From positions 6,108-70,107 of the forward strand of contig CACDTB010000002.1 of assembly GCA_902555535.1 (NCBI GenBank): 64,000 bases of DNA, given 5' to 3'. This stretch comes from an uncultured Pelagibacteraceae bacterium (GTDB taxonomy: Bacteria > Pseudomonadota > Alphaproteobacteria > Pelagibacterales > Pelagibacteraceae). The notes under the pieces are model-generated. The model did not search any database. It worked only from the letters and a program-made list of their open reading frames with translations, and was not told the origin of the DNA. The translations under genes and the position numbers were made by a program. This document shows positions 5,991 through 35,147 of this stretch, one piece after another (the first letter of the stretch is position 1; each line of letters starts with the position of its first letter).

Positions 5991-6347
5991 TTAATTTAAA
6001 GCGGATTGAGCTTTTTGTACAATTTTTTTGAAAGCTTCTGGGCTATCATAAGCTATTTCAGCAAGAATTTTTCTATCTATTGCAATACCACATTTGCTTA
6101 AACCATTGATAAATTTTGAATAAGTTAAGCCCTCTGCTCTTACTCCAGCATTAATCCTTTGTATCCACAGTGATTTAAAATCTCTTTTTTTGTTTCTTCT
6201 ATCTCGATAAGCATATTGCATGGATTTTTCCATCGCCTGCTTAGCAACTCTGATCGTATTTTTTCTTCTGCCCCATTGGCCTTTTACGGCTTTTAAAACT
6301 TTTTTATGTTTAGCTTTACTGGTAACACCTCTTTTAACTCTTGCCAT
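5991..6347 (-). CDS. rplT: 50S ribosomal protein bL20
   Basis: MARVKRGV...[23 protein letters not shown]. Confidence 0.98.
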
Positions 6348-33612: not shown

Positions 33613-33938
33613 TGACATATCTAGTTAATGATAAATGTATTAAGTGTAAATTAACTGACTGCGTTGATGTTTGTCCGGTAGATTGTTTTTATGAAGGTAA
33701 AAATATGCTTGTAATTAAACCGGATGAGTGTATAGATTGTGGCGTTTGCGAACCAGAATGCCCAGTTGACGCTATTAAAGCTGATACTGAACCAGGTAGT
33801 GAACAATGGTTAGAAATCAATAAAAAATATTCAGAAATCTGGCCAAATATAAATGAAAGAAAAGATCCTCCATCGGATCACGATAAATTTAAAAATGAGC
33901 AAAATAAGTACGAAAAATATTTTAAAGAAAATCTTTAA
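33612..33938 (+). CDS. fdxA: 7Fe-type ferredoxin FdxA
   Basis: [38 protein letters not shown]. Confidence 0.95.
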
Positions 33939-34791
33939 AGCTAAACCAAAAAAAAAAGTAAAAAAAAAAACTACAAACAAAAAACAAGTTAAAAAGAAAA
34001 CAAAAAGAATTAAAAAGATTGTTTCAAAAAAAATTAAAACTAAAATCACTAAAGGAAAAAAAGCTACTAATAAAAAAATAGTTACAAAAAAAATTTCTAA
34101 AGTTGTTCAGCTTAAAGAAGAACCTAAAGTTAATAATTTAAGAATTCCTAAAAGTAATGAAGTAAAACCGGAAATTAAAAAAATAAAAAAACAGGATACT
34201 GAAAAAAGAGAATTTAAAGTAAAAGATTATGTTGTTTATCCTAAACATGGTGTTGGTCAGATAACTGAATTTAAAAAGATTAATATAGGAAGCATTGATG
34301 TTGAGACTTATGTGATAAAATTTGAAAGAGACAAAGCTAATGGAATGGTTCCTGTAAATAAACAATCTCACTTAAGACCTTTAGCAACTATCAATCAAGT
34401 GAATAAATGTATCTCGATTCTAAAAAGTAAACCAAAAATAAAAAGGTCTATGTGGAGTAGAAGAGCTCAAGAATATGAAGCTAAAATTTCCTCTGGTAAA
34501 ATTTACGAGTTAGCAGAAGTAGTTAGAGATTTAAACAAAGGTGATGATCTTATGGTTGATCAATCATATAGCGAAAGACAATTATTTGAGAAAGCATACG
34601 AAAGAATTTTATCTGAATTTCAAATTGTGTTGAATTCATCTTCAGAAGATACACAAAAAAAACTTGATAAAGCACTAAAGAGAAATGTAAATGGCCAAAC
34701 TCAACAAACAAGAACTATAACAAAGACTTCTACAACAGAATTACCTGTTGAAGAACCTATTTCTGAGCCGGAAGAAAATTTAGACGAATAA
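33895..34791 (+). CDS. carD: CarD/CdnL-family RNA-polymerase-binding factor with Lys-rich N-terminal extension and acidic C-terminal tail
   Basis: [15 protein letters not shown], conserved Trp in [26 protein letters not shown]; fdxA-carD synteny. Start is 33895 or 33853, both inside fdxA. Confidence 0.92.
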
Positions 34792-34833
34792 AAAAAAACG
34801 CCTCTCACACAATCTGTAATGAGAAGCGTTTTT
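34790..34833 (-). terminator. Intrinsic terminator between carD and the basic micro-ORF (bidirectional, better on minus strand)
   Basis: Minus: CGCUUCUCA...UGAGAGGCG fully paired (one G-U) plus U9. Plus: same stem with a C-A mismatch plus U5. Confidence 0.8.
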
Positions 34834-34852
34834 AATAAGAATTACTAAGTTA

Positions 34853-34948
34853 TTATCTTTTTCTTCTTTTCTTAGTTTTCTTTGCAGCTTTTTTTCTTTT
34901 CTTAGCTTTCTTAGCTTTTTTAGCTGCTTTTTTTCTTTTCTTAGGCAT
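34853..34948 (-). CDS. 31-aa protamine/histone-H1-like basic micro-protein (MPKKRKKAAKKAKKAKKRKKAAKKTKKRRKR)
   Basis: Manual translation; AGGGAG SD 6 nt before ATG; tandem TAA TAA; upstream promoter and downstream terminator. Confidence 0.85.
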   Translation of the reverse strand: MPKKRKKAAKKAKKAKKRKKAAKKTKKRRKR

Positions 34949-34972
34949 CTTTAGCTCCCTAGTTAAGTTTAA

Positions 34973-34989
34973 CGAATCAAATTGATTCG
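34973..34989. promoter_or_regulatory. Perfect palindrome CGAATCAA-A-TTGATTCG with two GANTC sites
   Basis: Seen directly, in the predicted 5' UTR of the basic micro-ORF. Confidence 0.6.
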
Positions 34990-35000
34990 CTATTAAGGTA

Positions 35001-35029
35001 TTTTTATTTTTTTATACAAGTTATGTCAA
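35001..35029 (-). promoter_or_regulatory. Putative sigma70 promoter of the basic micro-ORF (TTGACA-N17-TAAAAA)
   Basis: Consensus -35 at 35024-35029; the -10 element lacks the -7 T. Confidence 0.6.
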
Positions 35030-35147
35030 TTCTTTAATTAAAATGTAATTTTTAAAAAAAAATTTTTATTTTTCATTTTGTTTTAAATTTAATTAATTTA
35101 ATTTAGTTAATGTTTATGCGGATAATAAACAATATACAAAATATTAT

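Follow-up and report, generated by a model that had tools for sequence, protein, structure and literature searches.

A conserved polybasic micro-gene beside carD in Pelagibacterales and its possible pairing with the rhtB RNA motif

Does an open reading frame (ORF) of 31 codons, made up almost entirely of lysine, arginine and alanine, encode a protein, and what could such a protein do in a very small cell? SAR11 is the most abundant bacterial lineage of the ocean and a model for genome streamlining. The question is raised by a minus-strand ORF beside carD in a stretch of 64,000 nt, here called the window (positions 6,108 to 70,107 of contig CACDTB010000002.1, GenBank assembly GCA_902555535.1, an uncultured Pelagibacteraceae bacterium). 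The assembly to which it belongs (G000) comprises 0.93 Mb with 29.4% G+C and is 69% complete. The peptide contains 17 Lys, 5 Arg, 6 Ala and one residue each of Thr, Pro and Met (71% K+R, 19% A), has neither Asp nor Glu and carries a net charge of about +22. Among the 5,524 ATG-initiated ORFs of 15–100 amino acids (aa) in the six frames of G000 it is the only one with more than 60% K+R. The initial annotation had described this acid-free ORF together with an AGGGAG Shine–Dalgarno (SD) sequence at a 6-nt spacing, a double TAA stop and a TTGACA -35 hexamer, and each of these was found where it had been placed (Table 1). As set out below, the ORF is a real gene under protein-level selection. We lean towards the reading that it is a self-contained unit encoding an order-wide polycation that would bind polyanions through its charge and that, in the genus Pelagibacter, would be controlled at its ribosome-binding site by the rhtB RNA element.

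Selection on the peptide and its conservation

The two copies of a 12-codon repeat in the window's ORF (codons 3–14 and 16–27) differ at four codons, three of them synonymously. The initial annotation had taken this difference, which direct reading of the sequence confirms, as a sign of selection on the protein. The test was extended to the genus Pelagibacter, in which 58 genome loci yield 40 unique DNA sequences in 14 length classes, every class being in frame. When same-length variants among these 40 coding sequences were compared along minimum spanning trees, 43 substitutions were counted, distributed over codon positions 3, 2 and 1 as 31/10/2. Thirty of the 43 (70%) are synonymous, against 18.5% expected by chance, and in the other two frames the synonymous changes amount to 0/41 and 9/41. 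The 13 replacements consist of 12 exchanges between Lys and Arg and one between Ala and Pro. No Lys was replaced by Glu, and no replacement of any kind creates Glu, though an A-to-G change at codon position 1 would keep the purine content. The suggestion of protein-level selection is thereby borne out.

Codon choice was considered separately. Poly(A) tracts are linked to slippage. AAG makes up 28% of the Lys codons of the gene compared to 12% genome-wide, and the mean longest A-run is 7.25 nt, compared to 9.97 nt when the same peptides are recoded with the codon usage of the genome. This choice of codons points to translation, as it is the pattern expected if slippery poly(A) tracts are avoided.

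By comparison of sequences, the peptide gene is conserved throughout the order, from its predicted promoter to its predicted terminator. A DNA search of 40 relatives recovered a K/R/A ORF of 22–31 aa at the same place in 18 of 20 loci, and in these 18 AGGGAGCTAAAG-ATG is invariant, while the leader hairpin and the stem sequence of the terminator are conserved. Of 274 genomes of the genus, 268 contain the 15-mer from SD to ATG with at most one mismatch; a reversed control almost never matches. Within Pelagibacter the polybasic ORF measures 17–36 aa. Beyond the genus, where carD served as the anchor for the search, a convergent polybasic ORF of 22–50 aa follows carD in seven sister genera (g5–g10 and g12). 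In a second family of Pelagibacterales (f2) the ORF reaches 76–85 aa, with a short MEELK(V/I)IFAK head followed by AAPKKK-type repeats. The synteny scan around carD that the initial annotation had proposed therefore yields a polybasic convergent ORF across Pelagibacterales, with frame and SD conserved, and nothing comparable was found downstream of carD in about 57 loci from other alphaproteobacteria.

The signals outside the ORF are conserved as well. TTGAC is found at an unchanged distance in each of the ten genera examined, and each genus of the order retains the leader motif ACGAATCA and the 5' hairpin. The sequence of the 3' arm of this hairpin differs from genus to genus, yet a hairpin of 7–10 bp is still formed; this speaks for conservation of an RNA structure rather than of a pair of GANTC sites.

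A sample independent of the genomes consisted of 80 environmental metagenome contigs (L227–L306), which hold 68 complete copies of the gene. All contigs are at least 1 kb long and hence uninformative on transcript ends. The ORF is intact on 66 of the 68 and frameshifted on two. The contigs encode 32 distinct peptides of 24–35 aa, and the exact peptide of the window is present on one of them. The distance from the stop codon to the terminator stem is 25 nt in 66 of the 68. As a separate observation, 12 of the 80 contigs end within the ORF, and many more end no more than 100 nt away from it. Assemblies seem to break at the repeat, in agreement with population-level variation in repeat number.

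The rhtB element as a possible pairing partner

Most genomes of the genus contain a second site nearly identical to the translation initiation region (TIR) of the peptide gene. This site is the Rfam family RF01814, the rhtB element, on the opposite strand (80–90 bits). Meyer et al. (2009, PMC2704228) reported the rhtB element as a hairpin with a bulge, in which both bulge and loop are conserved, ahead of a gene for a LysE-type translocator; they assigned it no function and named no target. Of 77 Pelagibacter genomes 74 carry RF01814, and it was absent from all 73 genomes from other genera. Taken together with one base of the stem, the 13-nt loop at the apex of the element is exactly complementary to GGGAGCUAAAGAUG of the peptide mRNA (14 nt), so that in relatives the loop complements the bases equivalent to window positions 34959–34946. 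Around this exact core of 14 nt the complementarity extends to up to 22 nt with one mismatch, and in genes of the Met-Ala type it runs through codon 3. With the rhtB sequence taken from a relative (G013), the duplex with the window's TIR has a predicted energy of -39.6 kcal/mol, compared to -14.3 ± 3.1 kcal/mol for shuffled partners. The 842 other TIRs of the genome average -10.8 kcal/mol, the best being that of dnaJ with -33.3 kcal/mol. The dnaJ TIR (start of MAKRDYY; G000 contig C15, offset 7373, plus strand) pairs with the 5' arm of the element and not with its loop, and this pairing may be a coincidence of the MAK..DY codons.

The strongest test of the pairing was covariation between the two sites, scored among relatives of the window's genome. 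At position -1 of the peptide gene, 16 of 401 genomes have A in place of G. All 11 variant genomes in which both sites are assembled carry the matching change in the rhtB loop, the remaining five have one site assembled and this is always the variant, and mixed states were found in 0/401 genomes. On a local carD tree the -1 variant needs at least four changes, and one doubly confirmed genome (G544) lies in a separate, well-supported clade; the tree is based on a single segment of 450 nt and SAR11 recombines freely. Two traits of an antisense target were found, namely above-chance complementarity at the SD-to-AUG stretch and, in the relatives, compensatory change in both partners. The complementarity and covariation of the rhtB loop and the TIR point to control at the RNA level.

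It is possible, and we suggest it tentatively, that the orphan rhtB motif exists to pair with the ribosome-binding site of the polycation gene, forming an mRNA-to-mRNA pair that would couple polycation synthesis to expression of a LysE-family exporter. A peptide of this kind could be toxic, for which reason its synthesis would be under control at the ribosome-binding site. In Pelagibacter, the apical loop of rhtB would pair with the stretch from SD to AUG and occlude the ribosome-binding site, and the same pairing would open the leader of the exporter mRNA. The exporter encoded downstream of rhtB belongs to the LysE translocator superfamily and is nearest to the RhtB and LeuE subfamilies, below every equivalog cut-off.

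Two further observations on the element support a real pairing. One is a G-U pair of the inner stem, which exists on the Rfam strand and not on the other. The second concerns a same-sense mini-ORF within the element (MAKKDY...), which was considered and rejected, since its length varies between 2 and 39 codons and many genomes have an early stop in it. The outer stem shows compensatory changes (GTCC/GGAC, GCCC/GGGC and GTTC/GAAC among loci L347, L354, L355 and L357), which support the hairpin independently of the loop pairing. In genera g5, g7 and g12 and in family f2, which lack the rhtB partner, the leaders of the peptide gene (L114, L115, L118, L119 and L120) carry a CUCC or CCUCU tract 10–15 nt upstream, which RNAfold pairs with the SD. 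This tract may act as an anti-SD in cis where Pelagibacter has one in trans, the predicted pairs being short (4–5 bp).

Possible functions of the peptide and of its transcript

Searches of Pfam, NCBIfam and PDB sequences with the 31-aa peptide returned no match at E ≤ 10, and Pfam gave none at this threshold for orthologues of 36, 50, 84 and 85 aa either. The profiles of the chlamydial proteins Hc1 (PF07432) and Hc2 (PF07382) matched neither the peptide nor its longer orthologues. None of six exact peptides, among them the window's and those of four relatives in the genus, was found in a collection of about 15 billion proteins. A search for homologues of the 85-aa orthologue yielded two fragments only. 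In the ESM Atlas this form is listed merely as 'hypothetical protein'; its nearest Pfam-bearing cluster has HC2 on 23% of the members (score 0.90), which serves as a lead only. In the literature on small proteins and polycations of SAR11, no published description of the gene was found.

The peptide is too small for a fold and changes length by gain and loss of repeats, so that it most likely acts through charge. It would bind and neutralize polyanions in the very small SAR11 cell without sequence specificity, with chromosomal DNA as the first candidate and RNA as the second. The C-terminal tails of histone H1, protamines and the KPAA repeats of Pseudomonas AlgP-type proteins are of K/A(/P) composition, change length by repeats and act by charge. 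The SAR11 peptide shares the K/A(/P) repeats and the repeat-driven change of length, and the f2 orthologue has AAPKKK-type repeats. In contrast to H1 tails and AlgP, it stands alone without a folded domain, does not exceed 36 aa in the genus and has no demonstrable homology to them. By this analogy we favour a histone-H1-tail or protamine-like role on DNA, a role on RNA being less likely. We infer that the peptide is translated in vivo and that it binds polyanions, and likewise in which direction, and with which sign, the RNA control would act.

A further parallel is offered by the chlamydial histone-like proteins Hc1 (HctA) and Hc2, which like the SAR11 peptide are Lys/Ala-rich polycations without acidic residues. 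The trait common to both is an acid-free Lys/Ala-rich repeat composition, with K/A/P repeats in the f2 orthologues. HctA is described as lethal in Escherichia coli (PMC3469542), and by analogy the SAR11 peptide would be potentially toxic as well. The hctA message is bound directly by the small RNA IhtA, and synthesis of the SAR11 peptide appears to be held in check in a similar way. The systems differ in that IhtA is a free-standing small RNA whereas the partner in SAR11 is the leader hairpin of another mRNA. Moreover, the SAR11 peptide shows no sequence or HMM similarity to Hc1 and Hc2, is 4–6 times shorter and lacks a structured N-terminal domain.

Several observations weigh against the reading of an rhtB-controlled, charge-driven polycation. 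Firstly, slippage in a repeat by its nature favours 3-nt indels. Secondly, three copies of the micro-ORF are frameshifted, namely that of 'Ca. Pelagibacter' nBUS_28 (L130) and those on the environmental contigs L249 and L266. In L130, a complete genome, a one-base deletion reduces an A7 run to A6; this could be a homopolymer sequencing error or real decay. Thirdly, RF01814 was not found in G000, the 69% complete assembly of the window (best score 18.6 bits). The genes for the RhtB exporter, a DUF2805 protein and a glutaredoxin that flank the element in relatives are also missing there, and since the whole rhtB neighbourhood is lacking, the absence of the element from this assembly is uninformative. 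Three near-complete genomes of the genus without the rhtB element retain the same TIR, and the Met-Pro subgroup, which includes the window, has not kept the pairing past the AUG. In other genera the peptide gene is present without the rhtB partner, and a second copy of the TIR within two mismatches was not found in genus g8. The pairing is therefore not the core function of the gene and would constitute a genus-level layer on an older gene. Lastly, homology to any DNA-binding family was not found, and the proposed function rests on composition and analogy. The interpretation in the initial annotation is supported in part, for a genuine, selected, stand-alone coding unit; high expression and binding of nucleic acid or polyphosphate are putative traits of the peptide. 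The initial annotation had noted neither the occurrence of the gene throughout the order nor the complementarity of its TIR to rhtB.

A different function for the same product would be that of a microprotein bound to the ribosome or to rRNA, where it would fill a groove of the rRNA. The proteins eL41, bL37, bS22 and bTHX are tiny polybasic ribosomal proteins, and the SAR11 peptide resembles them in size (22–36 aa), K/R content and its Arg-rich C-terminus. Its SD, which is among the strongest of the genome, and the consensus -35 hexamer also fit an abundant component of translation. GGAG occurs within 18 nt of the first ATG in only about 8% of 621 long ORFs of the genome; this frequency is an approximation, as translation does not always start at the first ATG. 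However, ribosomal proteins of this kind have a fixed length, whereas the SAR11 peptide varies from 17 to 36 aa within the genus by gain and loss of repeats and reaches 76–85 aa in the sister family. This plasticity, the tripled length in f2 and the absence of hydrophobic or aromatic anchor residues argue against a fixed rRNA pocket. In addition, no Pfam, NCBIfam or PDB family is matched, and the gene sits between an acyl-CoA ligase gene and carD, outside ribosomal operons. The eL41/bS22-like alternative that the initial annotation had named is weakened by these results, and a ribosomal role seems unlikely.

To the same degree it is doubtful that the RNA is the functional product. In that case a dual-function or sensor transcript would report charged tRNA-Lys and tRNA-Arg or ribosome traffic, its peptide would have no role, and its 5' part would target the leader of the LysE-family exporter mRNA in trans. 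The architecture of the unit is like that of a small RNA (a length of about 200 nt with a hairpin at the 5' end and a terminator of its own), the complementarity of 14–22 nt to the exporter leader co-varies, the ORF consists of essentially two amino acids as in attenuator leader peptides, and the partner gene belongs to the LysE translocator superfamily. Yet the gene is found throughout the order and the partner is restricted to one genus, and the exporter is nearest to RhtB/LeuE and not to LysE proper. The conserved Ala/Thr spacing, MPKK/MAKRR N-terminus and Arg-rich C-terminus go beyond what a sensor of codon content would need. Furthermore, no co-oriented gene lies downstream; there is a single plain terminator without alternative structure, and then the convergent carD.

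That the ORF is no gene, and arose by chance in an A-rich spacer or belongs to a purely non-coding purine-rich element, is very improbable: the genome is AAA-rich at 29% G+C, the +1 frame of the tract is also open and the large protein collection lacks the exact peptides looked up, but the ORF is unique among the small ORFs of the genome, shows the 31/10/2 codon-position bias with almost no synonymous change in the other frames, and keeps ATG, SD and stop invariant with conservation across two families.

If the favoured polycation is translated, it would be an unannotated, order-wide component of the SAR11 cell and the shortest stand-alone histone-tail-like polycation proposed in bacteria. The peptide would then escape gene callers, the protein databases searched and probably also tryptic proteomics. 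For the rhtB RNA motif, the function of which has been open since its description in 2009, the pairing offers a testable target. Control by RNA would thereby gain a further example, in a genome that encodes few transcription factors and very few protein regulators overall.

Arrangement of the locus

Positions 34790–35029 on the minus strand would form a self-contained transcription unit, with a transcript of about 200 nt (Table 1). The transcription start site is predicted near 34994. The Rfam scan of the locus matched no family.

Table 1. Coordinates of the peptide gene and its predicted expression signals, numbered from the first base of the window.
Feature	Position	Strand	Basis or remark
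Coding sequence of the 31-aa polybasic peptide	34853..34948	-	Frame, substitution pattern, in-frame length variants
Start codon ATG	34948–34946	-	Read from sequence
Stop codon TAA, then second TAA	34855–34853, then 34852–34850	-	Read from sequence
TIR: SD AGGGAG, spacer CTAAAG, ATG	34946..34960	-	SD at 34960–34955, 6-nt spacer
Predicted -35 hexamer TTGACA	35024..35029	-	Invariant across 16 aligned loci of the genus
Predicted -10 region TAAAAA(T)	35000..35006	-	17 nt past the -35; A-rich block conserved in the genus alignment
5'-proximal leader hairpin: CGAATCA, 3-nt loop, TGATTCG	34973..34989	-	In the genus, stem invariant and loop variable
Predicted intrinsic terminator, common to convergent carD	34790..34833	-	Stem 34833–34820 / 34807–34794, U9 at 34798–34790

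The terminator had been predicted to prefer the minus strand, which agrees with the folding energies. On this strand it forms a 14-bp stem with one G-U pair, followed by U9, at -23.1 kcal/mol (z -5.2). On the plus strand it reaches -18.3 kcal/mol and is weaker because the G-U pair turns into a C/A mismatch and the U-tract comprises just five residues.

The peptide gene is flanked by the acyl-CoA ligase gene on one side and by the convergent carD on the other. Just past the stop codon of the AMP-binding acyl-CoA ligase gene lies a conserved inverted repeat, GTTTAT..ATAAAC (window 35112–35130, minus strand), after which T-rich sequence follows in relatives. This repeat is probably the terminator of the ligase gene and would shield the peptide unit from read-through. 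On the other side, the CarD protein carries a Lys-rich N-terminal extension of about 120 aa (window 33853–34212, plus strand) ahead of the Pfam CarD domains (residues 121–272). A similar K-rich N-terminal arm is present in every CarD of the Pelagibacterales examined (220–298 aa; loci L112–L120 among them).
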